A stretch of DNA of 64,000 nt from a bacterium (GCA_043800725.1 JAZDMR010000034.1:4374-68373), one strand, 5' to 3'; positions 34,096 to 64,000 are shown, counted from the stretch's first letter. Made by a program: numbers and translations. Notes: a model not told the origin generated them from the letters alone.

Positions 34096-35292
34096 TTATT
34101 CATTACTCCAGCCCCAACTCTGAGCTCTCTGATACATAGCTTCTACGGTAGGCACGTAAACGCGAGTCTCAGCATAACCGGGATTTTCCGAGCATTCCCA
34201 CCAGGTTAAGCCTTTGACATCACCACTTGGCGGACAAGAAATGGAGGAGCAATTGGCTGATAGACCGCCATTATAGGCGGCGATCATATAATGCCAGTTA
34301 TTAGTACAATTAGTATATTCCGGCTTACATTGAACGGTCTGACCGCTCTTATACGTAGCACGATCAGGACAAGCATTGCTTTTTAATTTTTTTAATAATG
34401 CTACGCCAGCCCTGATATTCTGCTCAGCAGTGGCTTCTCCTTTCAGGCAATTTCCGCCTGAGTTATACGGCATCACTTGCATTAGCCCGCAAGCTCCGGC
34501 TGGGGAAACCGCGTCTGGATTGCCTCGCGATTCAATCATCATTACAGCTTTGACATAAAAACCATCCAAATCGTTGGCCGCCGATATTTCTTTTATCAGG
34601 CTGTCCCATTTAGTTACATTCTGAATCGTGGAAACATCTCCGCCTTGAGGAAACGGGCTGGCCGGCGAGCCCTTTTCACTAGTCATCATATTTTCATCTA
34701 AAATAATAGCCGGCACTTGAAAAATCGATAAATCACGAAAGCTAACCAAGGAAGGATTAATCGTCCTTAAAATTACAAAAGAGCCCAAGGTCAAAAGTAA
34801 TCCGATCACGGCGCCATTCATGGTTGACTTGGCATTGGTAATTTTTGATGCGTCGCCCGCCGCGGTAATCCATTGTATGCCGGCGTATATTGTCATAACC
34901 GCGGCTAAAATCCCCACCACCCAGACAAAATAGACATAAAAAGATCTGATGTACCTACTGAGCAAGCTGCCATCAACCAGCTGCTTCCCTTCAAATACCC
35001 CGGGAATAGGCGCATTGGGCGTAAAATAAATCTCATCAGAAGTTTCCACTAGTATATCAATATCAGGCATGTCCCCAGGGCAGTCTGAGTCCAGTCCAGA
35101 CCATTGATATCCGCCCATTACTTCCTGGCAGCTGCTACCAGGATTGATATTTACACGGCTACACATTTCTTGTCCAAAAAATACATTACAGCAACACGTC
35201 TCATAGGCCTGTGCTGGACTGGGAATAAACAGCATCCAGGTAAGAAAAATCCCGAGTACCAAGAATAGACTAATTTTTAAAGTTAGGTTCAT
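34096..35292 (-). CDS. Secreted/membrane protein (398 aa) with a C-terminal lytic transglycosylase (SLT, VirB1-like) domain and an internal VirB2/TrbC-like two-helix hydrophobic segment.
   Basis: Signal peptide. SLT motif MMIESRGNPDAVSPAGACGLMQVMPY. Hydrophobic hairpin FYVYFVWVVGILAAVMTIYAGIQWITAAGDASKITNAKSTMNGAVIGLLLTLGSFVIL, shared almost identically with ORF 37234..38367. Confidence 0.65.
   Translation of the reverse strand: MNLTLKISLFLVLGIFLTWMLFIPSPAQAYETCCCNVFFGQEMCSRVNINPGSSCQEVMGGYQWSGLDSDCPGDMPDIDILVETSDEIYFTPNAPIPGVFEGKQLVDGSLLSRYIRSFYVYFVWVVGILAAVMTIYAGIQWITAAGDASKITNAKSTMNGAVIGLLLTLGSFVILRTINPSLVSFRDLSIFQVPAIILDENMMTSEKGSPASPFPQGGDVSTIQNVTKWDSLIKEISAANDLDGFYVKAVMMIESRGNPDAVSPAGACGLMQVMPYNSGGNCLKGEATAEQNIRAGVALLKKLKSNACPDRATYKSGQTVQCKPEYTNCTNNWHYMIAAYNGGLSANCSSISCPPSGDVKGLTWWECSENPGYAETRVYVPTVEAMYQRAQSWGWSNE
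34817..34944. repeat. ~128-nt near-identical DNA repeat (copy 1), shared between the two VirB2-like genes; copy 2 is at 37970..38095.
   Basis: Direct comparison: about 6 mismatches over ~126 aligned nt. It encodes the conserved two-helix hydrophobic hairpin. Confidence 0.7.
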
Positions 35293-35927
35293 GTTGACAA
35301 GAGTCCAGCAATTAGATTATCCATGAATTCAAAAGTCGGCGCTTCTTTGATAAGAAACCGGTCAATAAAAATGGTAGGCGTGGTATTTATCCCAAAGGCC
35401 AGCCCGCTCTGAACGCTTGACTCAACCAAATTCCTGGACACTAAACCACCCTGGCAATTAGTAAATTCTTCCACGTCCAAATTCAAATCTGCGGCAATAC
35501 GAGTATATGTTTCCGGCCCTAAACTTTCTTGATTTTGGTACAATGCATCATGGTATTCCCAGAAAGAATATTGTTGCTGGGCGCAGCGAGCCGCCACGGC
35601 AGCCTCTTTCGCTTTTGCGCGAATGCTCTCAACGGGAAAATCTTTCCAGACCAATCTGATTTGTGAACCGTATTTTACAGATAATAACTGATACACTTCA
35701 TGCCACTGTTTGCAGAATTCGCATTGAAAATCGCTGTATTCTATTATTGTCACAGCAGCCTTTTCCGAGCCGCGAACGGGATCAGTCAATTCTATTTCAG
35801 GCAACTTGCTTGATAGATTCGGCGAGCTAGGTATTCTAATCGCCCACCAGGTAAAGCCAGCCAATACCAAAATACTGGCGATATAAAGCCAAGTAACAGA
35901 TTTATTTGATTTGGTTTCTTGGTTCAT
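35289..35927 (-). CDS. DsbA-family thiol-disulfide oxidoreductase (thioredoxin fold, membrane-anchored, 212 aa).
   Basis: N-terminal TM segment, CxxC active site (DFQCEFCKQWH), and a DsbA-like length and layout. Confidence 0.7.
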   Translation of the reverse strand: MNQETKSNKSVTWLYIASILVLAGFTWWAIRIPSSPNLSSKLPEIELTDPVRGSEKAAVTIIEYSDFQCEFCKQWHEVYQLLSVKYGSQIRLVWKDFPVESIRAKAKEAAVAARCAQQQYSFWEYHDALYQNQESLGPETYTRIAADLNLDVEEFTNCQGGLVSRNLVESSVQSGLAFGINTTPTIFIDRFLIKEAPTFEFMDNLIAGLLST

Positions 35928-37177
35928 TATTTAAGCTTTATGGTTCTGATTAAGCCCTGGCCATCGCTAAAATACAGCTGATCGCCCTGGGCCGATAAAA
36001 ACACCTTATCAACCGAATATTGCGCCGTACCGCTTGTATCAGTCGGCTGAGCCAGTAATTGCTTGCTGCCCGAGGCAATATCAATCTGGTAGAATTCATA
36101 CGGCAGTGAATCGCTCAACTCAGGATATAACCCGCTGCCTCGAGGCAGGCCGATCGGCACGGCACAATAAACAGTGTTTGTATTTGAGCCAAAAGAGCAT
36201 TTATCAGGCCAAGTATTTACTCCCAAGTGTTGATTGTTTCGCCCGAGACTGTTGCCCTGTGACTGCACGATATAAAGCTCCGGATTATAAGAGGTAGCGG
36301 AGTTATAGACGCTGTAAAGAAGCCTGGCTCCACTCTGGTCATACATACCCTCAAAGCCCCGGCCATTTGTTTCAATAGATTTGAAGTTTTCACCCTGAAG
36401 GCCCAGCGGGATGATTTCCTGCCTTTCCGCGTTAATGGATTGCTGGTATGTTGCCACAATCTGAGAATTTGGCGACCAGTTGACAGTCACCTGACTGGCC
36501 TTTTCTCCCAGCGGCTCGATAACCTGCGCTTCGGAACCATCAGAATTAATAATCGCCAGCCAGTTATCTCCGGGAGTAGGGCCGATAAACTTTGCCGCCA
36601 GCTTGGTCGAATCAGGCGAAAAAGAAAATTCCTCCAGCTCTGTGGGCAGGGTTGCCTGCTTTTTGGTACGGAAATCATAGGTAATATTGGCGCCGTCTTG
36701 AAAGCCCAGAACTGCCACATCCTTGTTGGGAGCCCAGGTGACATCTTCAACCCCTTTAAAAATCTGGTCCGTCATGATAGTTCTTTGGGCGCCGGTTCGA
36801 TCCAGCTTATAAAACTTGCCTGTCAGAGGATCATAATACTGCATATCCACGCCGTTGCCTGCCAAGCTCAAGAATTTGGATTGGGTGTCCACTACTGCCG
36901 GAGCAATCGTTTTTCCCCCGTTAGCCACATCGGTGGGAGCCGGCAAACTGATATTGGTAAGCTGGACTGCCTGGCCTGTATTGGCATTTGTATCAACTGT
37001 GCGATTAATGTCACCGTTGACATTTGGCAACTGTCCGTTTGACAGTTCATTGCTGTTTTCATCCTCAGTCGGCGCCGGCGCAATAAAAGCCATATACAAA
37101 AGTAGGCCGATAATAAATACGGCGATTAAAAAGGCAGCTATGTAAATAATTTTTCTCCAGGGTATTGATTCGAACAT
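35927..37177 (-). CDS. Secreted beta-propeller protein, TolB/PD40-like (416 aa).
   Basis: N-terminal TM/signal segment. PD40-like blade motifs (FSFSPDSTKLAAKF, WSPNSQIVATY, GDQLYFSDGQG). Confidence 0.6.
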   Translation of the reverse strand: MFESIPWRKIIYIAAFLIAVFIIGLLLYMAFIAPAPTEDENSNELSNGQLPNVNGDINRTVDTNANTGQAVQLTNISLPAPTDVANGGKTIAPAVVDTQSKFLSLAGNGVDMQYYDPLTGKFYKLDRTGAQRTIMTDQIFKGVEDVTWAPNKDVAVLGFQDGANITYDFRTKKQATLPTELEEFSFSPDSTKLAAKFIGPTPGDNWLAIINSDGSEAQVIEPLGEKASQVTVNWSPNSQIVATYQQSINAERQEIIPLGLQGENFKSIETNGRGFEGMYDQSGARLLYSVYNSATSYNPELYIVQSQGNSLGRNNQHLGVNTWPDKCSFGSNTNTVYCAVPIGLPRGSGLYPELSDSLPYEFYQIDIASGSKQLLAQPTDTSGTAQYSVDKVFLSAQGDQLYFSDGQGLIRTIKLK

Positions 37178-37233
37178 GAGTCTAGTTTTTTAGTAGTAAT
37201 TAATACAAATTCGAAATTGCGATAATAAAATCA

Positions 37234-38367
37234 CTAAGAGCACGGCATACCACATCTATTCCATATTTTTTGGAAATCAAAGTTAAACTCTTTTGTAGCC
37301 GGACCGCCGGGAGTAATAGGTATTTCAAAAATAAAGCAGTTTGATTCATTTTCTGGATCAGCTTGCTTACAGAGAGTGTGGAAGTAGGGGGTCCCAGATT
37401 CAAAATAAACATCCAGCCAAAACTGAGTCAGTGGTACTGGGTCTTGACTTTCTGATTTCAGAATAAAGCTTTTATTTAATTCAAAATTTTCCTCACCTTC
37501 CAATGTTCCGACCTTATGTTTATCATTATCACAATCCGGACAAGTGCGCCAAAGTTCAATTCTATTTAGTTTTTTTCCGTCAACCACGCTGACAACTTTC
37601 CCTCTGATTTCTATGAAGTTATCATAATAGCCGCACTGATAGCCACCTCCGGTACATGAGTCATACGGATCATGTTCTCCTTTACAGGGTAAGCAGGATT
37701 GAGTATTATAGGGGCAAGACTGGCTCAGGCAGAACAGGTCACCTTTTTCTTTCTTAGAATCTTCATAATGATAAACATCTCCGCAATAAACCTCTGCACC
37801 GGTCGCATATTTTTGGTAATCTATCCCATCTAGGGTCCGACAGAAATCACCAGCAAATTTTGGTTTTACTCCGATAACGGACGGCACTCTTAATTTCACT
37901 AAATCAGGGTTTATCGCGGCTAACAGCACATACGAGGTAAGAACGAGTATTAGGCCTATGACTGCTCCGTTCATGGTTGACTTGGCATTGGTAATTTTTG
38001 ATGCGTCGCCCGCCGCGGTAAGCCACTGTATGCCGGCGTACATTGTCATAACCGCGGCTAAAATCCCCACCACCCAGACAAAATATACGTAAAAACCCTT
38101 GATATAAGTTGATATTGCCGCGCTGCCGTCTCCGCCAATAAAATTGTGAGTTTGTATCCCGCCCGTGGTTTTGATACACTTAAGCGTTTCAGTAACGCCT
38201 GGCAAGGGAATATTCAAATGCACCTTGCCTGTGACTTGGCTGATAAAATTTGCGTCATCACATCTAAGCAAGACTCCTTCTTGGGCATAAGTTAATACGG
38301 GCATCAGGGCAAATAAAAAACCTGCCCCCATAATGCAAATTATAATTTTTTTTGTTTTGCTCGGCAT
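37234..38367 (-). CDS. Secreted/membrane protein (377 aa) with the VirB2/TrbC-like hydrophobic hairpin and a Cys-rich C-terminal domain; paralog of 34096..35292.
   Basis: Signal peptide. Shared segment FYVYFVWVVGILAAVMTMYAGIQWLTAAGDASKITNAKSTMNGAVIGLILVL. Cys-rich C-terminal region (CLSQSCPYNTQSCLPCKGEHDPYDSCTGGGYQCGYY...CPDCDNDKH). Confidence 0.55.
   Translation of the reverse strand: MPSKTKKIIICIMGAGFLFALMPVLTYAQEGVLLRCDDANFISQVTGKVHLNIPLPGVTETLKCIKTTGGIQTHNFIGGDGSAAISTYIKGFYVYFVWVVGILAAVMTMYAGIQWLTAAGDASKITNAKSTMNGAVIGLILVLTSYVLLAAINPDLVKLRVPSVIGVKPKFAGDFCRTLDGIDYQKYATGAEVYCGDVYHYEDSKKEKGDLFCLSQSCPYNTQSCLPCKGEHDPYDSCTGGGYQCGYYDNFIEIRGKVVSVVDGKKLNRIELWRTCPDCDNDKHKVGTLEGEENFELNKSFILKSESQDPVPLTQFWLDVYFESGTPYFHTLCKQADPENESNCFIFEIPITPGGPATKEFNFDFQKIWNRCGMPCS
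37970..38095. repeat. Copy 2 of the ~128-nt near-identical repeat (see 34817..34944).
   Basis: Direct comparison. Confidence 0.7.
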
Positions 38368-38386: not shown

Positions 38387-39220
38387 TTATAAATTTATTA
38401 CTTCTGCTAGCTTGTCCAAAATAAGATTCCAAAGTATCTCTTTATAATTCTGAAACACATAAACAATTGCAAAGAGAATAAATAACCAGACCAGAGTAAG
38501 TACTACAAAAATAAGTGCTTTGGCGCCCCGCACTACCAGTTCAGGCGGCGTCATCGAAGGTACTAGCGCTAATTCGAAACCTTTGACATTAATCGTAAAC
38601 ATTTTACCCAATAAATTTCCGATAAACAGCCGTACCCCAAACAAGGCTAAGGGGATGATTGATAAAAATGGCACCCAGAAGTAGACAAGAGCTGCTTCTT
38701 CTAGGGCTTCATGGGCAATTTTCCATACCGCTCTCTGCGCCTGTACTGCTAATTGCTCGCCGACGGCTATAATTTGTTCTTTTGCGACCGACATGCCGAT
38801 TGCCTGTTTCTGGCCGCCGATTGCTTGTCGCGCCCTGCGAAGAGCGGCCATCGGGCTTCTTGAGAGGGTTTCGGAAGATTCGGTTTTACTGGAGGATTTA
38901 TCAGATATTATTAGATTGTTTTGCTTTGTTTGTGCTTGTTTATCAGTTCGCCTCTCCTGCTGAAGCCGTCTTCTCCGGTCATCTGAACTGACAGGCTGCT
39001 CTTGGGCCATTAACTGATTGTCTTCCTGATAATCTTCCTCCTGATCAGTTCCGTTTTCTGGCATTTGTTCTGGTTGTAAAGAGCTAGAAGATCCCGGAAG
39101 TTTTATCTTCGATTGGCTAGTCTTGGGCCTTACCAGCCGCCGTTCAGCTCGATAACTGCGCCGATGCTGACGCTCGATCCCAGGCACTGGCTGCGTAGTT
39201 GTTGCTTCATTAGCCACCAT
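38387..39220 (-). CDS. Membrane protein (277 aa) with a charged, low-complexity N-terminal half and ~4 C-terminal TM helices.
   Basis: Hydrophobic C-terminus (VYFWVPFLSIIPLALFGVRLFIGNLL...ALIFVVLTLVWLFILFAIVYVF). It overlaps the downstream gene by 11 nt. Confidence 0.5.
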   Translation of the reverse strand: MVANEATTTQPVPGIERQHRRSYRAERRLVRPKTSQSKIKLPGSSSSLQPEQMPENGTDQEEDYQEDNQLMAQEQPVSSDDRRRRLQQERRTDKQAQTKQNNLIISDKSSSKTESSETLSRSPMAALRRARQAIGGQKQAIGMSVAKEQIIAVGEQLAVQAQRAVWKIAHEALEEAALVYFWVPFLSIIPLALFGVRLFIGNLLGKMFTINVKGFELALVPSMTPPELVVRGAKALIFVVLTLVWLFILFAIVYVFQNYKEILWNLILDKLAEVINL

Positions 39221-39803
39221 TTCCTCCCGGCTGGATGCTGGACGGCTTCCATTCTGCTCCGTCGACTAGCCAGCGACCTCCCTGAAAAATAAAGGTTAAA
39301 GACAGTGTTTCATAGTACTCAACGTCTGGCGCGCCAACTCGCTTCTCCGTCCGGACGACCGAGACATCAACCTTGGCTTGAGTTTGCGCTTGCCAATTTT
39401 TTATCAGGGTAGACAAGCTGTGACTGGCGATTGAGCTGAGCGACTCAGCGGCTTCTACCGACTCATGGGTCGACCTCATAACGCTCGAATATGCGGTGGT
39501 CAGCCAGGGCTTCAATTCCAGCAAGTACTCAGAGAGCGACCCCGATGACCAGCTGCCGTATCGTTCGGCAAAGCTTCTGGCAATTCCCAGTAGCTCAGCC
39601 TGTTCAGTTACTTCGATTGTCTGGATCACCGCGCTATTGGTGCCGCTATTTATAGTCACTGTCTGATTGGCATTGGCGACCACTACATTGCTGTTATTGA
39701 TATTGGCTTGATCATCAGTATCTCGCCCTAAAAGCAAGGCAATAACCGCGGCGACCGTCAGAACCACGGCAATGATCATTATGATAATAAATATTCGGCG
39801 CAT
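39210..39803 (-). CDS. Membrane-anchored periplasmic protein (197 aa); VirB8-position protein, function unknown.
   Basis: Single N-terminal TM segment (IFIIIMIIAVVLTVAAVIALLL). It lies between the VirB4-like gene and a membrane-protein gene. Confidence 0.45.
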   Translation of the reverse strand: MRRIFIIIMIIAVVLTVAAVIALLLGRDTDDQANINNSNVVVANANQTVTINSGTNSAVIQTIEVTEQAELLGIARSFAERYGSWSSGSLSEYLLELKPWLTTAYSSVMRSTHESVEAAESLSSIASHSLSTLIKNWQAQTQAKVDVSVVRTEKRVGAPDVEYYETLSLTFIFQGGRWLVDGAEWKPSSIQPGGNGG

Positions 39804-39823: not shown

Positions 39824-41836
39824 TTAGCCTAAGCCCTCGGTCTGACTGATTGACCTAGTGGCGGTTGTGGTTTCTTGTCCTGGGGTTTGTTCTTGTATTC
39901 CGCGAGCAACTTCTTCGGGGTTCTGACCGGAGGCTAATGCATCATCAAACTCTTCTTTGGCTTGCTCGATTTCCAGCAGTTGTCTGGGGTCAGAAGTAAT
40001 AATTTGATCTTCAGTATAACTGGCCACAACTTTAATGGCCGCGTGTTTGGCTCCGGCAAAAAATATGCCTTCTCCCACATTACACTCCAGCAATAAATAC
40101 TTTTCCCCTTGAGTGAGCAGAAAAGTCTTTTGGACTATGTCGATTCCGGCTGAAGACTGTTTCATTAGCAGCTGCAAAGCCGAGTTATTGACAATGGCCT
40201 GGCCATAAGGCGAGCGCAGAAAATCGTTAACGTCCTGGGTAATGGTGGTCACGCCCAAATAATACTTGCGGCACCTTTTAACCAGGGCGTAAATAAACTT
40301 GGCCGAATCCTCATGCTGCATTAACCACCAAGCTTCATCAATCACTAGAATCCGTTTTTTCATCTGAGAACGGACTATATTCCAGATATATGTCACGATA
40401 GTCGAGATGCCCACCGGCCGTAATTCATCTTCTAAATCACGAACGGAAAAAACCACCAGCTGATTATCTAATTCAATATTAGTGGCGCTATTGAAAAGAC
40501 CAGCAAAAGTCCCTTCGGTAAATTTTTTCAGGCGCTCGACCAGGTCTTTGGTACCGACCATGTCGGTAAGAACCTCTTCCAAATCCTTCATCAGGGGCGA
40601 TTCGACATTGGATAAATCTGAATCAGGGGTAATGTCTTTCTTGGCATAGGTCTCCAGCAGAGCTCGGTCAATCAGTGAATCCTCCTCATGAGTCAGCTCG
40701 CCTAGCATTAGGCGGAACAGCGATTTAAGGGTAATCACCGCGGAGCGGATAACATCGGCGGTTTTTTCTTCGCTGTGCTTCGGTTTGGGCAGATCAAAAG
40801 GATTTATCTTGGAATCTGCATTCAATGAAATATTTATATAAGTACCGCCCACTGCATCAGATAAATGCTTATATTCCATTTCCGGATCAATAACAATCAC
40901 GTCTGTGCCCAGCATCAGGCTGCGCAATATTTCCAGCTTAATAGCATAGCTCTTACCTGCGCCGGCAGTAGCAAAAACCACAAAATTGGCATTTTGCAGG
41001 CTGAACCTGTCAAATAAAATCAAGCTGTTGTTGTGGCGGTTAATTCCATAAAGTATGCCATTATCTGAAGTCAGATCCGAAGAAATAAAGGGGAAAGACG
41101 AGGCAATCGGCGACGAACTCATATTATAAGTAACCTGCAATTCATCATTGCCCAGAGGAATTGTAGAATTAAATCCTTGCTCAGCTTGGAAAAATGACCG
41201 TTTAGAATAAATTAAACGGCCGCCAAGCATTGACTCGATCTTTTCGGTAAGCAAATCAAGATAGTCTTTCCGGGTCGAATAAAGGGTAACGTACAGGGCG
41301 AATTGGAAAAACTTCTCTGTCCCCTGGGTTAAATCATCTCTTAACTTTTCAATATCTCGCAGGGCGGTCTCACGCACCGGATCACGAGGCGCTCCTTTTT
41401 CCGCATCGGAAATTATCTGAGCCTCCAAAACACCCACTTTATTCCTCAGCTGCTTGAGAATTACCGAGGATTCAATAGGATAAAAAAACATGCTGATATC
41501 CAGAGGAATATTAAAATTTATTATTGGCGCAAACCAACCTACAGAAATATACCGGGGGTAGGAAACAATGAATAAAGTGCGCACGTATTGGCTGCCTAAG
41601 CGAATAAAATCAGCTTCTACCTTCATGGCCGCGGGAGCAATTAAATCTCTGACCGTGACTACCCCGGCCCGATAGATTCTTTCTGACTCGAGTAATTCTC
41701 TTTCTTTTTCCGCTTGCTCGTGTTCCGACTGCTCTTTTTCGGATTCGCTAATTTTCTTCTTCATGGGAGCTGGGGGCTCTGTTCTGCCGGTAGCTTTGGC
41801 TAAATCAATTTCTGGCATATTCGCCTCCTTCAACAT
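39824..41836 (-). CDS. VirB4/TraC/TrbE-family type IV secretion ATPase (670 aa).
   Basis: Walker A motif FATAGAGKSYAIK, the DEAW Walker B motif (RILVIDEAWWLM), and a family-typical C-terminal region. Confidence 0.8.
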   Translation of the reverse strand: MLKEANMPEIDLAKATGRTEPPAPMKKKISESEKEQSEHEQAEKERELLESERIYRAGVVTVRDLIAPAAMKVEADFIRLGSQYVRTLFIVSYPRYISVGWFAPIINFNIPLDISMFFYPIESSVILKQLRNKVGVLEAQIISDAEKGAPRDPVRETALRDIEKLRDDLTQGTEKFFQFALYVTLYSTRKDYLDLLTEKIESMLGGRLIYSKRSFFQAEQGFNSTIPLGNDELQVTYNMSSSPIASSFPFISSDLTSDNGILYGINRHNNSLILFDRFSLQNANFVVFATAGAGKSYAIKLEILRSLMLGTDVIVIDPEMEYKHLSDAVGGTYINISLNADSKINPFDLPKPKHSEEKTADVIRSAVITLKSLFRLMLGELTHEEDSLIDRALLETYAKKDITPDSDLSNVESPLMKDLEEVLTDMVGTKDLVERLKKFTEGTFAGLFNSATNIELDNQLVVFSVRDLEDELRPVGISTIVTYIWNIVRSQMKKRILVIDEAWWLMQHEDSAKFIYALVKRCRKYYLGVTTITQDVNDFLRSPYGQAIVNNSALQLLMKQSSAGIDIVQKTFLLTQGEKYLLLECNVGEGIFFAGAKHAAIKVVASYTEDQIITSDPRQLLEIEQAKEEFDDALASGQNPEEVARGIQEQTPGQETTTATRSISQTEGLG

Positions 41837-42503
41837 TTACTTTTGATAAATCAGCGAACTTTTGTTGTCCTACGGATTCTGGATTGTAAGTGTTGTAATA
41901 AAGCTCTATCAGGCTCTGAGTGTCTAGCATTATGGACTTCAATCCGCTGGCGCTCAATCCATCAATCACGTAATCAGCCCGCTTGAGCAGCTCTTCCCGG
42001 TAAATCATGAATTGCCGTTGTTTAAGATGAATAACCGTCGAGGGCGATAACGCTTCTAGAATCCTATTGAAAAATCTTTTTGGCTTGTCCGAATGCGGCA
42101 TAAAAGGAATAACCACATAAAATCGCTTGGACATTAAATCGGCAATCTGAATCAGCTCGCTGACATACTCCCGATATTCCCTGGTTTGCATTCTGAGCAG
42201 CTCATTGCGCTGGCCTAGTTCGCTTTCTTTCAAGCGCTCTAAATAATTATCAATATTCAGCTTGCGAGATTGAATAACAATCTGAATGGAAAAATCCAAA
42301 GAGTTTAAAAACTGCGTATAGCTGGCAATAACCGCGTTCTGCTCTTCTTCTGACTTGAGTGAAAAATTGATTGATGAAACTAATAATACGGCGCGGATAG
42401 TGCCGTCTTTCAAAACAACGATATCGTCCTTGATCTCGAGAATATCAATATACCGCTGAGTCGGTATTACGTTTCGTTTTTGTTTTGCCGGTTTATTCGC
42501 CAT
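41805..42503 (-). CDS. VirB4 N-terminal-domain-like protein (232 aa) encoded separately; together with 39824..41836 it suggests a split VirB4.
   Basis: Pattern QRYIDILEIKDDIVVLKDGTIRAVLLVSSINFSLKSEEEQNAVIASYTQFLNSL, resembling VirB4/TraC N-domains. It overlaps the ATPase gene by 32 nt. Confidence 0.45.
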   Translation of the reverse strand: MANKPAKQKRNVIPTQRYIDILEIKDDIVVLKDGTIRAVLLVSSINFSLKSEEEQNAVIASYTQFLNSLDFSIQIVIQSRKLNIDNYLERLKESELGQRNELLRMQTREYREYVSELIQIADLMSKRFYVVIPFMPHSDKPKRFFNRILEALSPSTVIHLKQRQFMIYREELLKRADYVIDGLSASGLKSIMLDTQSLIELYYNTYNPESVGQQKFADLSKVNVEGGEYARN

Positions 42504-44509: not shown

Positions 44510-44836
44510 CTACTTTTCACGTTCTGCTGCTTTATTTTGGCCGATTAAAAAAACAATTCTGCTTGCTTCCGCCTCAACTGTTGGGCCGTCATATTCTCCG
44601 GCATGAGCCGCTGTCCCCTGATAACTGGGTTTTTTCATATCCAAATGAAGGTTTAACACTAGTTCCTGAGGATTATCCTTATGCAGGTACATATGGAAGC
44701 GCGGATAAACATAGCCGCCCATCCTTCGCGAAAAACTCATTTGTGACTGCGACCTGCTCCGATCCGGGCTATAACCTAGCTTTCTGAGCAGAGTGAGAAT
44801 ATTAACTTGTCGAGGAAAATTAAATTCAAGTCGCAT
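44510..44836 (-). CDS. Hypothetical small protein (108 aa).
   Basis: ORF in the cluster, flanked by ~120-nt and ~30-nt gaps. Confidence 0.4.
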   Translation of the reverse strand: MRLEFNFPRQVNILTLLRKLGYSPDRSRSQSQMSFSRRMGGYVYPRFHMYLHKDNPQELVLNLHLDMKKPSYQGTAAHAGEYDGPTVEAEASRIVFLIGQNKAAEREK

Positions 44837-57100: not shown

Positions 57101-58773
57101 ACCGGCGGAGCGCCTCGATAAACATTAATAGAAGTAACGGTTGATTGGGAATCGTTATCTGTGGCCTTGGCTTGCAACTGATACGATCCGTAAGAAGAGA
57201 ATGTTTGGCTTTTATCCCAATTATCAAAAGCCCAGGCGCCGCCTCGGTTGGTGGCATTGCTATAAGCTTGGTTTGTGCAAGTGCCCAGACAGGCGCGCAC
57301 TCCGACAGTATCAACGTGTCCGTCATTATCCCCGGCTCGTCCGACGACCAAATACGGACTGGTCGTAATTAATCCGTTATTTACCGGATCAGTAATGGAA
57401 ATATAGGGCGGTACTAATGCGGTGGTGGTAAAAACTTTATCCCCGGAATCAACGCAGACAAAACCATTGCATGACCTCACCTTGTAGTGATAAGTAGTAT
57501 TGGGATTCAGTCCGGTTAACACTCTGCTGTGATCCGGAGACATTGTCGCGCTGCTAACGTGTGTTCCGTAAGCAGTGGTTGGCCCATAATAAACATGGGT
57601 ATCTGAATCCGTATTTGTAGTCCAGCTGATAGTGGCGCTCCGCGGCCCGATCGGATTGGCAGTCGGACCGGAAGTGATGGCTAAATTTGCTTCGTCAGCA
57701 AAGTCATACTTGGTTACCTGCCCGGACGAATTCCGATGAGTTACCCAGATAGAGTCTCCTACTAATTCCAAGCGCATAGGAGGGCCGGCGGCAGAAGTAT
57801 CCGCAATTCCTGTTTGTACGCGCTCGTATGTTTCAGTATTCCATCGCCGGACAACAACTGTATTATTATTATATTCAACTAAATCATAGATACTTTCTTC
57901 TTCATCATAAACAGCATCGCGAATAGTGGCTGAGGCTTGCTCAAAATAGACCGTGGTGAGTAAATCTGCCGGGTCATATACGCGTATATCAAAATAATTA
58001 TGTCCGAAAATCCATACTTTTTCACCGTCCCATATGCTGACTCCCGGATAATCAACATTGACATAATTAAACGAAGTGGAACGGGAATCAATCAATTCAA
58101 GAGTTTGTAGATTGAGAGTTTGTCTTACAAGTTTATATTGATAATTTGATGGCTGTCCGGGAATATGGGTGGTAGCGGCAACAAACAGCGTATTATTATC
58201 GATTGCGTGTACGCCAAATGGATCATAATATAAAGTAGCAGAAGGATACTGATATTCATCCAATAGATTACCTGACTGATCTATCTTATATATTTCACCA
58301 GCGGGCTGCGTTCCGGATTTCCCATAATATCGATTAGACATCTTGCGACTGAATTCATCCGCGTCATATTCAGGAGATGAGCTTCCTGTCTCTCCTCCTC
58401 CAGGATAATATTGGACATCGTCTCCTAAAATACGGATTATCGCGGAAGAATTATTCCCGCTCATTTTTCGCACCCAGATGTATGATCCATCCCAGTGAAT
58501 CGGCCCGGGTACGAAATCCGCCGGCGGATTAATTGTCTTGGTAACGCTGCCATTAGAAGGATTAACCCGCTTAATAACATGATCTTGAGCGCTTGAAAAC
58601 CAAACCGAAGAATTATCATAGGCCACATACGCCTGCTCGACGCCCAGATTATAAACCGTTTTTGTCAGGGCCTGAGCCGGCGCAGTCCACCCCAGTACGC
58701 TAACAACAACCAATATAGCCACGGCGCAAATAAATGACGCGCTGGTAAGTTTGAAAATTTGTGGCTTGGTCAT
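54199..58773 (-). CDS. Giant secreted protein (1524 aa) with at least three FN3 (PAP-N-like) domains and Ig-like repeats.
   Basis: Signal peptide (FICAVAILVVVSVLGWTAPAQA). FN3 motifs ATISWTTNTDSDTHVYYGPTTAYG...YHYKV, ITVNWTTDEPADGTLYYGTT...YYYQV and ATMTWATNEASDSRIYY. Repeated ~90-aa Ig-like segments (NIISHTNGQQVDTDTINLSGTATDADNNI and NITSHEDGEIVDNDSVTISGTASDPDGSI). Confidence 0.7.
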   Translation of the reverse strand: MTKPQIFKLTSASFICAVAILVVVSVLGWTAPAQALTKTVYNLGVEQAYVAYDNSSVWFSSAQDHVIKRVNPSNGSVTKTINPPADFVPGPIHWDGSYIWVRKMSGNNSSAIIRILGDDVQYYPGGGETGSSSPEYDADEFSRKMSNRYYGKSGTQPAGEIYKIDQSGNLLDEYQYPSATLYYDPFGVHAIDNNTLFVAATTHIPGQPSNYQYKLVRQTLNLQTLELIDSRSTSFNYVNVDYPGVSIWDGEKVWIFGHNYFDIRVYDPADLLTTVYFEQASATIRDAVYDEEESIYDLVEYNNNTVVVRRWNTETYERVQTGIADTSAAGPPMRLELVGDSIWVTHRNSSGQVTKYDFADEANLAITSGPTANPIGPRSATISWTTNTDSDTHVYYGPTTAYGTHVSSATMSPDHSRVLTGLNPNTTYHYKVRSCNGFVCVDSGDKVFTTTALVPPYISITDPVNNGLITTSPYLVVGRAGDNDGHVDTVGVRACLGTCTNQAYSNATNRGGAWAFDNWDKSQTFSSYGSYQLQAKATDNDSQSTVTSINVYRGAPPVVNIISHTNGQQVDTDTINLSGTATDADNNIDNPMRVQVNGGAWQPIDITSSQNVGWGPKTISLDVGGNTIRVEAEDATGFVGFKQIVVNRGQPPTINITSHEDGEIVDNDSVTISGTASDPDGSISQVHVRVNNGTWLLASGTATWSRPSIPLQPGENIIEARAKDNIGLYGYDAITLIYEAPYYEFSLVSDSPLTVYEGEQAQFTFNLTGFNNWSSEVLAERYARDNIPATRFSWADDNQFVPPSAPGQNLTLNINTANLVSDTYDLSARANKIGTSTYQVVYFQLIVADGPDFAISSADSQETIQPGSGATYPLHLQETTPVYNFDINLSINSIIPNHGGNITSLNFSTASLKASPYGSGDSTLTVTTNASLAIGTYTIQVKASGQDGSWNRTRYINLTLVVGDSPDYEILANPLSQEGELGGSVDYTLTLRETIPVYNWPVNVTLDQVWGDDEGDQSDKITTASLPNNITPSPNPGTDRVVTINISADAPPDTYTLTFKGVGTDLPLTQTHFATVELIIEEEPQPDFEVFHSDSDWIYYNISQGGSRIWDVQVRSINGFNEPVRMTIEDMFPNYPNEWQGVIVWFVDNDSDIITVTPPPDGTVDVNVVVLAGGSAECKQYEADAKGRDDQVVGPPDDYREAQINFKVVGCDTDNDPPVIDPASVVCLPGVGSITVNWTTDEPADGTLYYGTTSPPGSTEVEGDGYIINHLVTKSGLQEGADYYYQVESCDQSGNCTGRFPIPPGVCHTESFDDNEFPEVSWFDPTDGQTVSGTIPLKVTAFDNVGIVDVQFLVDGTSISTDTNPPGCAPYYCEQSWNTSSVSNGNHTLTAIAKDTSQNPGQDSITINVLNDSTAPICTGLEYQWGSNWATMTWATNEASDSRIYYCYEGTALGTCGKCIGNGYCANGQMGPLCYYCQAKIENTPVTEHAITIGGSDDPLESGQTYHFMAESCDAGLNCGQCGG

Positions 58774-59034: not shown

Positions 59035-62000
59035 TTAGCCTCCAATAAAATTAGTAATTGGATTAGCTGTATCGTAAAAGGGCTGACAGCCGATTTCAAA
59101 GTCGATCAGCGAACCGCATTCGGATACCTGGCTTGTTAAACTCTGCCTAAGAATGTAATAAGGCTGACAGCCGGGCCGGCCCGCATCGCTCGTGCCATAA
59201 GGCTGGCACTCAGGGCCGATTTCCAGATAGTTGCCTTTTTCATCCAAATGCAAAGTACAGTCAATATTACAGCCTTCAGAATAACGAGGCTGTTTGGGCG
59301 GATCTAGCGGGTCTCTAAACTCGGTACATCCCGCTGCTCCGGCATTGCACTGGCCTACCCAATAATTCGAGCAAGTAGCCACCGGGTCTCCGCAATCAGC
59401 GACCTCACAACAGTCATCATCAGTTCGGCAAGCGTAACCATCAAGAGGTCCGCCCGCACAAGTAACACTCGGTCGGCCAACTGATGGTACGGCTACGCAG
59501 ACTCCATTATTTTCCGGAACCGAAATCAAATTATGACAGTTGTTTTGATCGGTATTAATCGATCCTGAATGACGTCCGTCGCAATATGGCCGTGCTCCGC
59601 CATCGCCGCACTTACCCACGCTGCAGACCCCTCCCCCTAGTTCACAGTCCTGATCACTGTCATTTATAAGGCAGCTCTGGCCATTTTCCGGACCGCCCTG
59701 ACAAATATTGCCGCAATCTCCGTTATTCAAACACTGCTTGCTTTGATCAGCGCCGCCGTTGCAGGTGCCGGCGCAAACTAAACTGACTTCTTTTTCCTCG
59801 CCATCATAAGGATAGGCAATACAGTATCCTCCGGAAATCAAGCAGGCTTTTTGTTCTTCTACGGTCCGGCATAATTCACCGGCCAAGGCTCCGCCTCGGC
59901 AGGTCAGAGAAACTGTAGGACAGGGGTCATTGGTCCCGCTTATAAACCAACCGTCAACCAGCAGGCCTGATTGGGCTGCCCCGGTTCGATATTCACACGT
60001 ACGATTCCCAGGATCTCTGAAATACGACTGTGCTCCGGTAATCTCCTCGGTATATTCCGCACACCATAGTTCATCCGGATGACAAGCGCTGAAACTGTAG
60101 GTATCCGGATCATTGATCAAGTTAGCTGCTGACCAGTCTTGGACTTGATTATCCTTATCTATGACCGGCAAGCCAAATTCTTGGCAGCCTTGATCGTCGG
60201 CCCGGCAGCTGTATTTTGGTGAATTAACAAAACCGAGGGTGGTATCGCCGGGAACCAGGAATTCGGGATCCTCGTGTATCTTCTGAACAAAAGGATAATC
60301 TGAATTTTGGGTATAGGTGAAAGCCTCGCAGCCTACTGCGCGATCAGCGCACAGGTTGCTAAATGAAGTTATGGCAATAGGCTTATTATTTCGATCAATA
60401 TAAAGCGAGCAACCGGCATAGGCCGCTTCACAGCTGGTCTGGGTTCCTTTAATTTTAAAGATGCTGTCTATCGACTCAATAATGCTAATATTATCAATCC
60501 ATCCGCCCGGCAAAGTGCTGGTAACCGGAGTAGTGAATTCAAAAGTAAACACTGATGACGGCGGATCTGCGAGAAAATTCAAATAAACCGGCCCTAATTC
60601 ATATTCAGCCCATTCTGAAGTTACTGTTACGACCTGGCTGGGAACCTCGTTGCCAAACTCATCACTGATCCGAAAAGCCAACTGTCCGCCCGGATCACGG
60701 GGCTTGTACCAGAATTTAACGCCGTAGCTGTTGCCGTTGGAAATTGATTCAGACAGATCTATGCTGAATATCGTATCCTTAGTCGTGCGCATCGAGTGTC
60801 CGCCGGCATTGACTGACTCGTTGGAATAGCTGACACCGCCGACCCAGTCGCCGATGGTCCCGTTTTCAAAAGTATCCGAATAAATTGACCTGGTACTGCC
60901 GGCGGTCGTGCCTTTGTATTGCCGGCAACCGGCGGCTGATTCAGAACATCGAACGGCCTGGCTGGGAATTATCTGATAAATGTTATCAATCCCGGCTTGA
61001 GCGTCAATCGTATTGCGATACGGGTGGCAATCGTCAGACACAAAAATAGTCCTGGATTTCAATCGATAGAAAACTTCTCCATTATCGCCAAAGTACTCCG
61101 TACAGTCAGGATTAATGCCGATATCGGTGATTAAACAGGTCGCGATATTTGCTGGATCATCTTCGCAAACAGGATCCGTGATAGTGCTGCCGACTGATAG
61201 ATTGGTACACGGAGCCGTGCCTGTTTCCGGAAGCAGCGGACCCCCCTCGTCTGGGTCAAATGCCGTATTGACCAGATTGCTTTTTAGTAATTTGAAAGCC
61301 CGGAGCTGATAGCCGCTGTCCTCACTGCCTTCCCAAGTATAGAAATTGGCCGCATTGGGATCCGACGGCTTGACGCACTGCCGAATCTTAAGGAAGTACT
61401 CTTTTTCTTCGCCGCCCGAGCCCTCTATATCCAGATTGGTATATTCTTCGCAGCCTACCTGTGAAACACTGCATTGATTGCCAGATGACTCAATGAAATA
61501 AACCGGATCAATGACGGGCCGATCGGGAACTCTTTCGATGGGCATTTCCCTAAACTGCCGGCAGCCGACTTGGCTGTTGGGGCAGATATCCGAAGGAAGG
61601 ACAATTCCGCTAACCGATGATCCCAGGCCGATCGGGCGATATCTTTCACAGCCCACCTCGCCTTTGGTGCAGATAAGCGGACTTTCGGTAACCTTGAGAT
61701 TATCGCACCAGATACTGCCCGAGCCGTCAGCCTGAATGCCTCCGATATCAGAAGCCACGTTGTAGCAAAGAATTTTCACAAAACCGATATCCGGATTATT
61801 GGCCGTGATATTGAATCGTACTGGGGTCCAGTCTTGCGCGCCCAGGACAGCGAACTGATTATCCCCGTCTTCCACGGACGGCCTGATGTGGGTTTCAAAG
61901 TTGGCCAGCAAGCACTCGCTCGGCTCATCAGCCGGTGGGAAGAAAACATCATAAGCATCCGGCTGGTCTGGGCCGTAAACGCACTCGGTGACGATGGCGC

Positions 62001-64000
62001 CGAATGGCTTATCGCCCCCATTCGCGTCTAAATTCGTCTTAATCATGCCGCTGACCTCATAAGTCTTGCCGAATTCGACCGGAACCAGCTGCTCCGCGTA
62101 CAGGCGATTATTCGCCGTCGTAAGCTTTAAGGAAGTGGAATCAAAATAACCCAGGGTTTTATCAATCTCGGATATTCCGCCGGCTCCGAGCGCCCAGCCG
62201 TCAGGAATCAAATCATCAGCCGAAGAATTATCTTGGTCAGCTGGCGCGGGATATGAGAAAAAGTCAGTACCGTCGTCCAGGCTAAAGTCGCCGTTGGACA
62301 TCAGGGTGGTTTGATCGATTTTCAAAGATACCTCGTTAACAGTCTGATAATCAGTATAGCCGGTTAGCGTGTCGCCTATCTCAAGCTTGGCGCTGTCAAC
62401 AAGGGCGGAACATCCGGGAGGAGTATTGATATAAGCTATGATCCTTGAGTCTGTATAAACAAGTTCTGGAATATTGAAAGTCGCACTTAACCTTTGCCAA
62501 TCATCAGTATAATTGGCTGGCGGTTCATCAGCCACGCCCAGAGTAAATACTGTATCAAAGCTTTGCAGCCCAAAGCTGCTGTTACATGCGCCGCCAGTGC
62601 TTTTTCCATAATAAGAAAAAGTGACTGATAACCCGGACAAACTCCGATAAGTATCAAAAATATGTTCAATTCTTGTGCCGCTGGCACCTGATAACTGCAG
62701 TGAAGTGGAGTTGGGTGAGCCCACGCCGCTGGTATCTGTACTGATGGCCAATGTCTCAACTAAATTGCTGGAAGCCCGCCAGCCATCACAAACATAGGGT
62801 GAACCGCCACAATCAGCATTGGTCAAGCAGGCATTGCCATTCTGGCTGCAATATCCGAAGGTATCAGCCACAGCATCATCAGCCTCTCCGGAATAATATT
62901 CAAATCCGGCATTTTTCAGAACATTGGAGCCGTTTGAAGTGCGAACCAATTCTGTGCAGTCCACGGCGCTATCATTGCAGGACCGTACGTCACGGTCAAA
63001 GAAAAATTTATCACCGCTGTCTTCTCGGCAGTTCCAACTATTATTTACGTCATTATAACCATAATCAGAGCAATACCATTTACAACCGGCGTTTTCGGGA
63101 CTGCAGTCCCCTGAATCCAGGGTATCTTTCAGATAATAATTTTTAACGCCCAAAGCGTCAACATAAGTCCGGCAAGACGAATAATAACCAGGGCATTCTT
63201 CTCCGCCGAATCGCCAGATGGGCTTTTCTTCAAAGCAATAACCAAAAGCCAGACAATTGCCCCGTTCGTCTTCCTTTATGCAATTGGGCTCATCCACGCA
63301 AACTTCCGGATTGCGGGCGATTGTCCAGCTGCCGATATCGCCGCCGCCAATATCACTGGGACTGCAGTTATTCTTGCCGTCGCCATTGGTATCCTGATCA
63401 CAGTTAAATTGCCGGCTGATAATTTCATCGCCCGCGCCCTGCCTGCGGCAATAAGTCTCCGGAGCCTTCAATACCCAGGCAGGATCAATCAAGCCGCAGA
63501 AAGGCGAGGCTAAGAAATTATCAGGATTGAAAGGATCTACTATGCCGTGCTGAGCATCTTGTCCGCACCAGTCATATAAATCAATCAGTTCCTGCAAACC
63601 ATAAGCTTGCTGATCAGCATCTCGGATATGAATCGCGGCCAGCTCCCAGCCTACCGGGACGACGCGGTATTTGCGCAAATAAACAATGCTCCGATAGGGT
63701 ATGCCGGTCTCTGCTTCAACATTTGACTCATCAAAACCAAATGTCTTATTGCCGTTAATCAGGCCGTTTTCAATGGCTTCGCGTAATGTCATCTTATCGT
63801 CAATCGCCTGCCTGAATCCTGAATCAATAATGCCCGTAGATACCAGACGGTCGCTTACCGCTATGGTCGATTTGGCCGGATCGCCGGTACGATAGTCCAC
63901 TCTGGCCAAGCTAGAAAACTGCAAGCGGGCCGCGGCAATGCCCCTGGGCGCATTGGACCCGAATAAAAGACCTCCTAAGCGCGACTCGGTAGCTGACGGT
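59035..64000 (-). CDS. Giant Cys-rich protein (>1650 aa); its N-terminus lies beyond the right window edge.
   Basis: The reading frame stays open to position 64000; the ORF track begins at an internal TTG at 63924. Extremely Cys-rich C-terminal third (CAGTCNGGADQSKQCLNNGDCGNICQGG...CELGGGVCSVGKCGDGGARPYCDG). Confidence 0.7.
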   Translation of the reverse strand, partial: PSATESRLGGLLFGSNAPRGIAAARLQFSSLARVDYRTGDPAKSTIAVSDRLVSTGIIDSGFRQAIDDKMTLREAIENGLINGNKTFGFDESNVEAETGIPYRSIVYLRKYRVVPVGWELAAIHIRDADQQAYGLQELIDLYDWCGQDAQHGIVDPFNPDNFLASPFCGLIDPAWVLKAPETYCRRQGAGDEIISRQFNCDQDTNGDGKNNCSPSDIGGGDIGSWTIARNPEVCVDEPNCIKEDERGNCLAFGYCFEEKPIWRFGGEECPGYYSSCRTYVDALGVKNYYLKDTLDSGDCSPENAGCKWYCSDYGYNDVNNSWNCREDSGDKFFFDRDVRSCNDSAVDCTELVRTSNGSNVLKNAGFEYYSGEADDAVADTFGYCSQNGNACLTNADCGGSPYVCDGWRASSNLVETLAISTDTSGVGSPNSTSLQLSGASGTRIEHIFDTYRSLSGLSVTFSYYGKSTGGACNSSFGLQSFDTVFTLGVADEPPANYTDDWQRLSATFNIPELVYTDSRIIAYINTPPGCSALVDSAKLEIGDTLTGYTDYQTVNEVSLKIDQTTLMSNGDFSLDDGTDFFSYPAPADQDNSSADDLIPDGWALGAGGISEIDKTLGYFDSTSLKLTTANNRLYAEQLVPVEFGKTYEVSGMIKTNLDANGGDKPFGAIVTECVYGPDQPDAYDVFFPPADEPSECLLANFETHIRPSVEDGDNQFAVLGAQDWTPVRFNITANNPDIGFVKILCYNVASDIGGIQADGSGSIWCDNLKVTESPLICTKGEVGCERYRPIGLGSSVSGIVLPSDICPNSQVGCRQFREMPIERVPDRPVIDPVYFIESSGNQCSVSQVGCEEYTNLDIEGSGGEEKEYFLKIRQCVKPSDPNAANFYTWEGSEDSGYQLRAFKLLKSNLVNTAFDPDEGGPLLPETGTAPCTNLSVGSTITDPVCEDDPANIATCLITDIGINPDCTEYFGDNGEVFYRLKSRTIFVSDDCHPYRNTIDAQAGIDNIYQIIPSQAVRCSESAAGCRQYKGTTAGSTRSIYSDTFENGTIGDWVGGVSYSNESVNAGGHSMRTTKDTIFSIDLSESISNGNSYGVKFWYKPRDPGGQLAFRISDEFGNEVPSQVVTVTSEWAEYELGPVYLNFLADPPSSVFTFEFTTPVTSTLPGGWIDNISIIESIDSIFKIKGTQTSCEAAYAGCSLYIDRNNKPIAITSFSNLCADRAVGCEAFTYTQNSDYPFVQKIHEDPEFLVPGDTTLGFVNSPKYSCRADDQGCQEFGLPVIDKDNQVQDWSAANLINDPDTYSFSACHPDELWCAEYTEEITGAQSYFRDPGNRTCEYRTGAAQSGLLVDGWFISGTNDPCPTVSLTCRGGALAGELCRTVEEQKACLISGGYCIAYPYDGEEKEVSLVCAGTCNGGADQSKQCLNNGDCGNICQGGPENGQSCLINDSDQDCELGGGVCSVGKCGDGGARPYCDGRHSGSINTDQNNCHNLISVPENNGVCVAVPSVGRPSVTCAGGPLDGYACRTDDDCCEVADCGDPVATCSNYWVGQCNAGAAGCTEFRDPLDPPKQPRYSEGCNIDCTLHLDEKGNYLEIGPECQPYGTSDAGRPGCQPYYILRQSLTSQVSECGSLIDFEIGCQPFYDTANPITNFIGG

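Follow-up and report, generated by a model that had tools for sequence, protein, structure and literature searches.

The type IV secretion systems (T4SSs) of Patescibacteria (candidate phyla radiation, CPR) are known from one experimentally studied species and from a large genome survey. In the saccharibacterium Southlakia epibionticum, an unusual and essential T4SS combining Gram-positive-like subunits with essential pilins, and without a recognisable coupling protein or relaxase, was described by Wang et al. 2023 (PMC10633639); this is the only species in which the need of a T4SS for host-dependent (epibiotic) growth has been demonstrated. Quinonero-Coronel et al. 2025, surveying 3,035 Patescibacteria genomes, delimited, within MPF_FATA, a monophyletic clade of VirB4 with vertical, class-specific inheritance and accompanied by genes for TrsD, PrgI/VirB3, VirB6, VirB2-like pilins and, occasionally, VirB1 (PMC12102498). 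In the same survey relaxases were present in 103 of the 3,035 genomes, VirD4-like type IV coupling proteins (T4CPs) were present in most of them, usually far from virB4, and the T4SS of the class ABY1 was found to adjoin comF, recG and radA, which was read as possible functional coordination (PMC12102498). Here we analysed a stretch of 64,000 nucleotides of bacterial DNA (GCA_043800725.1, JAZDMR010000034.1:4374-68373), hereafter the window, whose right-hand part (34096-64000) carries a T4SS-like gene cluster. We consider it probable (about 0.7) that this locus is a chromosomal, non-conjugative T4SS of Patescibacteria, class ABY1, derived from the monoderm MPF_FATA lineage, which would act as a disulfide-stabilised contact organelle; the source genome is a metagenome-assembled genome (MAG) of Patescibacteria. 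The core machine and its ABY1 context have already been published and the system is of a known kind. An earlier description of the window made by a model (the sequence-only reading) did not recognise it as such, and its proposal of a non-conjugative secretion or contact apparatus agrees with the literature on the system (PMC10633639, PMC12102498).

The cluster consists of a minus-strand, co-directional run of 16 genes, as established by ORF (open reading frame) listing and translation, and extends about 2 kb past the right edge of the window, where the sequence was taken from contig JBDRPK010000004.1 of GCA_043827125.1. At the gene junctions either overlaps of up to 32 nt or gaps of 6-124 nt were observed, the single exception being the 261 nt between the genes of the first two of three giant proteins, here numbered from the right. 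The co-directional run of giants and T4SS-like genes put forward by the sequence-only reading is thus retained, while its gap range of 0-125 nt is not; its order of genes at the left end had to be corrected to cysteine-rich pilin-like protein, propeller, DsbA and pilin-like protein with an SLT domain, and the rightmost giant, given there as longer than 1650 aa, proved to be 2053 aa in full length and to be preceded, outside the window, by a conserved 269-aa gene. The gene spacing suggests a single operon; promoter and terminator scans of the locus stayed at chance level and were uninformative on operon structure. The base composition of the locus is not anomalous, and an Rfam scan retrieved three tRNAs only. 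Families were assigned by scanning 36 window ORFs with Pfam and NCBIfam profiles against their gathering scores or cut-offs, and the features are listed in Table 1.

Table 1. Genes and repeats of the T4SS locus and of its left flank, from right to left (Cys, cysteines; TM, predicted transmembrane segments).
Feature	Position (nt)	Strand	Length	Characters and matches
Giant 1	59035..64000, to ~65196	-	2053 aa (1655 C-terminal aa in window)	91 Cys; CBM_4_9, E 1.5e-9
Giant 2	54199..58773	-	1524 aa	signal peptide; 23 Cys; Big_7 (E 8e-25), Pur_ac_phosph_N, fn3
Giant 3	49467..54113	-	1548 aa	signal/anchor sequence; 83 Cys; N-terminal FN3-like domain, CBM4-like beta-sandwich
Extended VirB6/TrbL-like polytopic protein	46260..49457	-	1065 aa	TrbL sub-threshold; family-level support
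Cytoplasmic protein	44866..46245	-	459 aa	no Pfam/NCBIfam match; homologue in locus L083, 35% identity
Small cytoplasmic protein	44510..44836	-	108 aa	no family match
Cytoplasmic protein	43006..44385	-	459 aa	directly upstream of PrgI; tblastn matches in 75/80 loci
PrgI/VirB3-like protein	42493..42999	-	168 aa	2 TM; Pfam PrgI, 36 bits vs gathering score 27
TrsD-like detached VirB4 N-terminal domain	41805..42503	-	232 aa	VirB4_plasma E 2.6e-10, TrsD E 1.8e-7
VirB4 ATPase	39824..41836	-	670 aa	NCBIfam CD1110, 349.8 bits vs cut-off 325
Putative PrgL/VirB8-like bitopic protein	39210..39803	-	197 aa	profile-profile match to PrgL family
Membrane protein	38387..39220	-	277 aa	long charged N-terminal tail, 2 TM; no family match
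VirB2-like hairpin protein 1	37234..38367	-	377 aa	17 Cys; T4SS_pilin PF18895, 35.0 bits vs 26.6
Membrane-anchored PD40 (TolB-type) beta-propeller	35927..37177	-	416 aa	PD40 matches in family
Membrane-anchored DsbA-like thiol:disulfide oxidoreductase	35289..35927	-	212 aa	Thioredoxin_4 E 5.8e-26, DSBA E 2.7e-11
VirB2-like hairpin protein 2, SLT fusion	34096..35292	-	398 aa	T4SS_pilin 31.6 bits vs 26.6; SLT E 3e-15
Direct repeat	34802..34953 and 37955-38106		152 nt	copies 90% identical; spans first hairpin helix of both pilin-like genes
RadA/Sms	32658..34001	-		94 nt after last T4SS gene; conserved neighbour, membership in the machine not implied
Protein with HD-phosphohydrolase-like motif (read by eye)	31712-32305		197 aa	left flank
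RecG	29571-31628			left flank
ComF-like protein	25938-26642			left flank; competence/recombination genes adjoining the T4SS

The membrane engine of the system could be assigned in most of its parts. Besides passing the CD1110 cut-off, the VirB4 ATPase matches the TraG P-loop/AAA_10 domain (E 1e-30) and is, among the matches listed, 71-87% identical to Patescibacteria VirB4 proteins, the names given by their sources to the closest listed relatives being Patescibacteria, Kerfeldbacteria, Falkowbacteria or Parcubacteria. It aligns with positions 178-729 only of the CD1110 profile, positions 5-137 being covered by the 232-aa gene upstream, which overlaps virB4 by 32 nt and whose homologues carry the Pfam TraC-like domain PF26593. 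As the two genes match separate parts of CD1110 and the smaller one also matches TrsD, the splitting of VirB4 is considered real. The VirB6-like protein has at least six predicted transmembrane segments in its first ~390 aa, followed by a ~670-aa charged cytoplasmic tail; TrbL was matched by 6 of 35 orthologues (best E 3.8e-7), and no other family was matched. The 197-aa bitopic protein encoded after VirB4 did not match any Pfam, NCBIfam or PDB sequence. Nevertheless, a profile-profile comparison with hhalign between its 36-member family and a seven-member PrgL family assembled from plasmid records gave a probability of 90.6% (E 1.3e-6, 98 columns), PrgL being its sole match among 17 proteins of the MPF_FATA system pCF10, and in 76 of 78 loci VirB4 is followed by an ORF of similar size with one predicted transmembrane segment. 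As the VirB8-like nature of PrgL itself has been validated by structure (PMC12102498), with moderate confidence we regard the 197-aa protein as PrgL/VirB8-like.

Nearly all VirB assignments of the sequence-only reading were borne out by these searches: the VirB2 and VirB3 families passed at the profile level (the small membrane protein as PrgI), the split of VirB4 into an N-domain gene and an ATPase gene is backed by the CD1110 and TrsD matches, and the VirB6/TrbL-like protein with its long charged tail is supported at the family level by orthologue matches to TrbL, polytopic topology and gene position. Its statement that relaxase, VirD4 and VirB11 are missing also held, since profile scans of the 36 window ORFs retrieved none of them, and none lies in the next 4.8 kb of the wider contig to the right of the window. 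By tblastn, the VirD4-like protein and the relaxase of pCF10 matched neither the window nor any of 85 related neighbourhoods, whereas pCF10 VirB4 matched them all. VirB7, VirB9 and VirB10 gave no matches in the Pfam and NCBIfam scans. No integrase was found at the locus, and a mobile element was rejected on the basis of housekeeping context, normal composition and vertical conservation.

Two VirB2/TrbC-like hairpin proteins, one fused to SLT and one to a Cys-rich domain, had been proposed from the sequence, and both the PF18895 and the SLT profiles were passed. Hairpin protein 1 is predicted to consist of a signal peptide, a short N-terminal ectodomain, the hairpin (aa 88-157) and a variable 220-aa C-terminal domain; hairpin protein 2 of a signal peptide, a Cys-rich N-terminal ectodomain, the hairpin (aa 112-176) and the SLT domain (aa 232-347), in which the ES, GLMQ and AYNGG motifs, read from the sequence, are intact. 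Both hairpins are free of cysteines: except for C11 in the signal peptide of hairpin protein 1, whose remaining 16 cysteines lie in its ectodomains, the cysteines of the two proteins (17 and 14, respectively) are confined to the ectodomains. Such fusions to an enzyme or to a Cys-rich domain, which had been called unusual, are on the contrary the rule in this lineage, where large size and a high cysteine content characterise 38 of 40 pilin-like proteins, and PF18895 was matched by 38 of these 40 related proteins. The fusion partners found among the 40 were SLT (6), Peptidase_M23 (2), VanY (2), Peptidase_M15_4 (1) and Big_7/beta-helix (1). At the position before RadA, with the hairpin preceding the hydrolase, four genomes carry SLT and one genome each M15_4 and VanY; because hydrolase types are swapped within a fixed architecture, this argues that the feature under selection is a peptidoglycan hydrolase anchored by a pilin hairpin.

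Within the window, 56 of 66 aa are identical between the hairpins of the two proteins, as also reflected in the 152-nt direct repeat, the remainder of the two proteins being unrelated. Among 15 genomes with two such genes, the median hairpin identity was 0.73 within a genome vs 0.45 between genomes, indicating from sequence comparison that the hairpins undergo concerted evolution. Matched hairpins are what would be expected if both proteins packed into one assembly, and may be taken as a hint in this direction; gene conversion without any constraint from co-assembly could also account for them.

Both proteins encoded between the pilin-like genes were as the sequence-only reading had described them. 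The DsbA-like oxidoreductase, besides its Thioredoxin_4 and DSBA matches and its membrane anchor, has a CxxC active-site motif (C69-E-F-C72). For the TolB-like propeller, PD40 was matched by 13 of 22 family members (best E 3.8e-8), a comparison of the family profile with TolB (7mx5) gave E 0.029, and two cysteines, C327 and C338, are invariant. Cysteines are few outside the giants and the pilin-like proteins, with 0-2 in the products of the cytoplasmic genes, three in VirB6 and four in DsbA. A role of disulfides is therefore suggested by the concentration of cysteines in the exported proteins, by the anchored CxxC DsbA and by the precedent of F-type T4SSs (PMC11315126).

All three giants have predicted N-terminal Sec-type signal or anchor sequences, including giant 1, whose full gene (L002:3578-9739) encodes a predicted Sec-exported protein. 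Giant 2 is a chain of fibronectin type III (FN3) and Big_7 Ig-like domains. In giant 3, which ends 9 nt upstream of VirB6, an AlphaFold2 (AF2) model of residues 230-830 had a mean predicted local distance difference test score (pLDDT) of 57.7 and included a confident beta-sandwich, whose best PDB matches by Foldseek were carbohydrate-binding modules (CBMs) of the CBM4, CBM22 and CBM11 types (E between 1e-7 and 1e-5; TM-scores, normalised to the target, mostly of 0.6-0.67). Dozens of its cysteines are invariant across 12 family members of 29-55% identity, hence they are probably structural. An exhaustive HMMER search with a fragment of giant 3 retrieved relatives in 387 representative clusters, nearly all proteins of 1,200-4,000 aa. 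The most widely common module corresponds to residues ~670-820 (window 51600-52100) and occurs in hundreds of clusters, in proteins of up to 4055 aa; it is rich in Trp and Cys (SCRLYPREDSLLC...GWYGYCLE...SWWPVDIIGGE) and no known family matched it. For giants 1 and 2, profile searches against PDB sequences yielded nothing useful. We also observed a 42-nt motif in three copies (53899-53940, 54434-54475 and 55022-55063; 64-71% identical to the reference copy); the FN3-like domain of giant 3 contains one of them ('WTTDQ..ADS') and the C-terminal part of giant 2 the other two, so that the two giants appear to have an FN3-like domain type in common.

The giants had been proposed to be cargo or tip components of the apparatus. 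Cargo was rejected, because Sec-type N-termini imply export independent of the T4SS channel, and surface or attachment components appear to be the better reading. No LPXTG motif or C-terminal anchor was found in the giants, and tblastn detected no similarity to PrgB. The gene preceding giant 1 (L002:2762-3571, approximately window 65203-66012) encodes a 269-aa acidic membrane protein with an aspartate-rich stretch, DTDEDGLSDYDE, resembling by eye a thrombospondin-type-3 calcium-binding repeat; a homologue (36% identity) is at the same position in locus L085.

The arrangement of the locus was compared across 80 genome loci taken around VirB4 homologues with 10-kb flanks. A recurrent order was observed, namely cysteine-rich giant, VirB6, variable cytoplasmic genes, 459-aa gene, PrgI, TrsD, VirB4, PrgL-like gene, small membrane protein, pilin, propeller, DsbA, pilin-hydrolase and RadA, in genomes labelled Kerfeldbacteria, Falkowbacteria and others; as the same order is present in dozens of independent genomes, the layout is beyond chance. 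By tblastn the TrsD-like gene was detected in 80/80 loci and PrgI in 78/80. Where 8 kb or more was available on the downstream side of VirB4 (41 loci), pilin genes were found in 23, the propeller in 21, DsbA in 18, RadA in 24 (21 on the same strand) and RecG in 32, and a large ORF with at least 2.5% Cys was among the nearest three upstream of VirB6 in 25 of the 38 loci having a plus-strand ORF there. The counts 23, 21, 18, 24 and 25 are lower bounds, the tblastn queries being the fast-evolving proteins of the window.

The context of the giants was examined in the contigs encoding six giant 3 homologues (26-52% identity). A VirB6-like gene lies 3-9 nt downstream of the homologue in 6/6 contigs, a Big_7/FN3 giant immediately upstream of it in 6/6, and a further giant of 1578-2053 aa upstream of the latter in 5/6; the three of these that were checked, in loci L083, L084 and L085, have ~80-90 Cys and are giant 1 homologues (33-53% identity). 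This recurrence indicates that the giant triad is a conserved part of the locus and not a chance neighbour, the 269-aa gene being kept in one of the six contexts. The median identity to the window proteins falls from VirB4 (74%) through TrsD (55%), PrgI (45%) and VirB6 (39%) to the giants (29% or less) and to the pilin ectodomains, which could not be aligned, a gradient that fits host-facing, fast-evolving parts.

The best reading of these data would be an organelle, stabilised by disulfides, that serves to attach to a host and to breach cell walls. As in Gram-positive T4SSs, the translocon in the membrane and the motor of assembly would be made up of VirB4, PrgI, VirB6 and the PrgL-like protein, and VirB4 would drive both hairpin proteins to build one shared structure, either pilus-like or a channel, with the ectodomains facing outward. 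DsbA would oxidise the cysteines of the pilin ectodomains and of the giants, conferring stability outside the cell. The giants, given their carbohydrate-binding modules and their position corresponding to that of the pCF10 adhesins in the operon, may bind the host surface, where they would stand in for PrgA/PrgB/PrgC and recognise glycans, while the pilin-anchored peptidoglycan hydrolase would open the cell's own wall, the host wall, or both. Such a contact organelle would move proteins or other molecules in support of a host-dependent lifestyle and would not carry out relaxase-dependent conjugation. A more elaborate version, possible but in our opinion doubtful, is that an ABY1 T4SS has been rebuilt as a disulfide-hardened feeding or penetration organelle, in which the hairpins would co-polymerise into a filament or conduit displaying the hydrolase and hypervariable cysteine-rich recognition domains, the giants would dock to host glycans, replacing both the Gram-positive adhesins and the Gram-negative outer-membrane core, and DsbA and the propeller would take part in the assembly.

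Several observations weigh against the contact-organelle interpretation. The giants could be co-located envelope proteins having no physical link to the T4SS, and large ectodomains on every subunit may clash sterically with a canonical VirB2 pilus. About half of the 41 flanked loci have no detected DsbA (found in 18/41) or propeller (found in 21/41), these counts coming from tblastn with the window's own proteins, by which divergent copies are missed. VirB6 of the window is below the Pfam TrbL threshold (E 0.0007-0.002, 18-20 bits vs 25.9); the VirB8-like call is a profile-profile similarity only, the AF2 model, built from four sequences, having a pLDDT of 46; finally, the genome may encode a T4CP away from the locus, a frequent situation in Patescibacteria (PMC12102498).

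Among the remaining genes of the run, the 459-aa protein encoded at 43006-44385 has a strongly conserved C-terminal region (consensus ...FRRLG...AWRQSPV...) and no counterpart in Pfam, NCBIfam, PDB sequences or pCF10, and is a candidate lineage-specific T4SS component. The 108-aa gene was detected by tblastn in 9/80 loci and has 40-55% identity in locus L084. The 277-aa membrane protein is poorly conserved in sequence, with analogues of two to three transmembrane segments at the same position in many loci. Using hhalign, no counterpart of the two 459-aa proteins, the 108-aa protein or the 277-aa protein was found among the 17 pCF10 proteins, although single-sequence templates are insensitive (TrsD vs PrgJ also failed), and profile searches against PDB for a 459-aa family and for the VirB6 family gave nothing useful.

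As for the surroundings, the 269-aa gene beyond giant 1 is followed by KsgA, a Sua5/YrdC-family protein, an MFS transporter and a tRNA synthetase, and on the left side RadA is followed by the HD-motif protein, RecG, tRNAs, the ComF-like protein and a Clp ATPase, the three tRNAs lying in the 25938-34001 stretch beside the T4SS. A second co-directional minus-strand block was noted at 926-19591. Encoded in it are seven exported proteins (273-1195 aa, each having 6-32 Cys), for which Pfam matches to a PQQ_2/BamB-like beta-propeller, a weak propeller-repeat match and an FN3-like domain were obtained; these proteins (4135-19591) are encoded directly upstream of type IV pilus genes, namely pilM (2949-4046), an unassigned 446-aa gene and pilO (926-1606). 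The block thus mirrors the arrangement of the T4SS locus, with large secreted proteins preceding machine genes.

The ComB DNA-uptake system operates without relaxase, T4CP and VirB11, and the window locus, likewise devoid of them, resembles it. The main rival to a contact organelle is accordingly a DNA-uptake (competence) T4SS like ComB or Ced, whose imported DNA would be processed by the adjacent ComF-like protein, RecG and RadA. The same-strand RadA gene 94 nt downstream and the recurrence of RadA and RecG near VirB4 would suit such a function, as would the co-localisation with comF, recG and radA published for ABY1 and its reading as possible coordination (PMC12102498). VirB4 does match CedB weakly (E 2.9e-11), but with 42.7 bits vs a cut-off of 700, and giant CBM proteins and peptidoglycan hydrolases are foreign to ComB and Ced. 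Furthermore, competence could be served by the window's own type IV pilus cluster (pilM, pilO), and in Saccharibacteria, according to the summary of Wang et al. 2023 in PMC12857230, it relies on type IV pili and ComEC, the T4SS being essential though ComEC is dispensable. Because the T4SS of Saccharibacteria is essential independently of ComEC-dependent competence, DNA import was rated lower, and we consider it unlikely. Conjugation, with a relaxase and a coupling protein encoded elsewhere in the genome or too divergent to be recognised, appears very improbable: the T4CPs of most Patescibacteria genomes are indeed usually far from virB4 (PMC12102498), the nearest VirB4 relatives outside Patescibacteria are conjugative (CD1110 and Mycoplasma integrative and conjugative element families) and the gene order is colinear with pCF10, but relaxases are rare in the surveyed genomes (103 of 3,035; PMC12102498), the vertical, class-specific inheritance of VirB4 (PMC12102498) and its 71-87% identity among the listed relatives are unlike a mobile element, and the housekeeping context, the normal composition, the lack of an integrase and the 85 neighbourhoods negative for T4CP and relaxase by tblastn speak against it.

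A different objection is that the giants, DsbA and the propeller are general envelope proteins that happen to be encoded beside a T4SS, the hairpins being mere anchors for wall-remodelling enzymes. All these proteins have predicted Sec signals or anchors and would not need the T4SS for their export, the co-directional run reaches KsgA, the Sua5/YrdC-family protein and the MFS transporter, so that strand and spacing alone set no boundary to the unit, a similar block of large secreted proteins stands beside the type IV pilus genes (4135-19591), and the 387 clusters sharing the giant 3 module include many much larger proteins. This explanation does not easily accommodate the position of VirB6 3-9 nt after giant 3 in 6/6 contexts, the block of pilin, propeller, DsbA and pilin-hydrolase kept between VirB4 and RadA in many genomes, or the concerted evolution of hairpins that score above the T4SS_pilin gathering threshold; we hold its chances to be small, about those of DNA import.

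If the locus is indeed a contact organelle, its ABY1 form offers concrete candidates for the extracellular half of the Patescibacteria T4SS, essential in the one species tested: glycan-binding giants at the adhesin position, pilin-anchored hydrolases with a lineage-variable enzyme and a dedicated disulfide-forming enzyme. Binding of host-wall glycans by the CBMs, lysis of the host's or the cell's own peptidoglycan by the hydrolase domains (SLT, M15 or M23) and co-assembly of the hairpins are among the ensuing predictions, and the accessory set could help to trace host-contact machinery in surveys of a large class of uncultured bacteria.

Compared with known systems, the locus shares with Helicobacter ComB and archaeal Ced a VirB4-based machine without relaxase, T4CP or VirB11, but its similarity to CedB is far below the cut-off, it has no outer-membrane core, and its giants, DsbA and hydrolase fusions are absent from ComB and Ced. 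F-type T4SSs, which encode the thioredoxin-fold helpers TrbB/TraF alongside the Cys-rich TraN (an adhesin), TraU and TraH (PMC11315126), are alike in having their own oxidoreductase together with cysteine-rich extracytoplasmic components including an adhesin (PMC11315126). They differ in that their enzyme is a periplasmic DsbC-like isomerase, whereas that of the window is of the DsbA/Thioredoxin_4 type, membrane-anchored and in a monoderm, and in that their clients have 6-22 cysteines vs 80-90 in the window giants, with no client homology detected. The likeness to pCF10 is closer, since the order of adhesins, VirB6 (PrgH), VirB3 (PrgI), VirB4 (PrgJ), hydrolase (PrgK) and VirB8-like protein (PrgL) is the same, VirB4 belongs to the same NCBIfam family and the 197-aa protein is related to PrgL; on the contrary, the VirD4-like PcfC, the relaxase and the LPXTG adhesins of pCF10 have no equivalent in the window locus, and the window locus differs further by its split VirB4, by its VirB2-like pilins, which Gram-positive systems lack, and by its hydrolase placed on a pilin hairpin.

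The closest match is with the Patescibacteria T4SS itself (SEML1_0006-0019 in S. epibionticum), with which the locus has in common the chromosomal location, a VirB4 of the same clade (by identity and CD1110), TrsD-like and PrgI/VirB3 proteins, a large VirB6, an NTF2/VirB8-like protein, a peptidoglycan hydrolase, PF18895 pilins and the lack of a nearby relaxase or T4CP, in addition to the ABY1-specific neighbours comF, recG and radA known from the survey. S. epibionticum has an array of six small pilins, the window two large pilins with cysteine-rich ectodomains, one of them fused to a hydrolase. DsbA, thioredoxin, propeller and disulfide are not mentioned in PMC12102498, DsbA and disulfide are absent from the main text of PMC10633639, and a literature search of incomplete coverage retrieved no description of the giant triad, the VirB2-hydrolase fusion or the matched hairpins. 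Beyond the published Patescibacteria T4SS, the window thus contains a triad of giant cysteine-rich CBM/FN3/Ig proteins, whose genes precede that of VirB6, as well as a PD40 propeller and DsbA. The core of the system has been described before; its new part would be these accessory proteins together with the pilin-hydrolase fusions.

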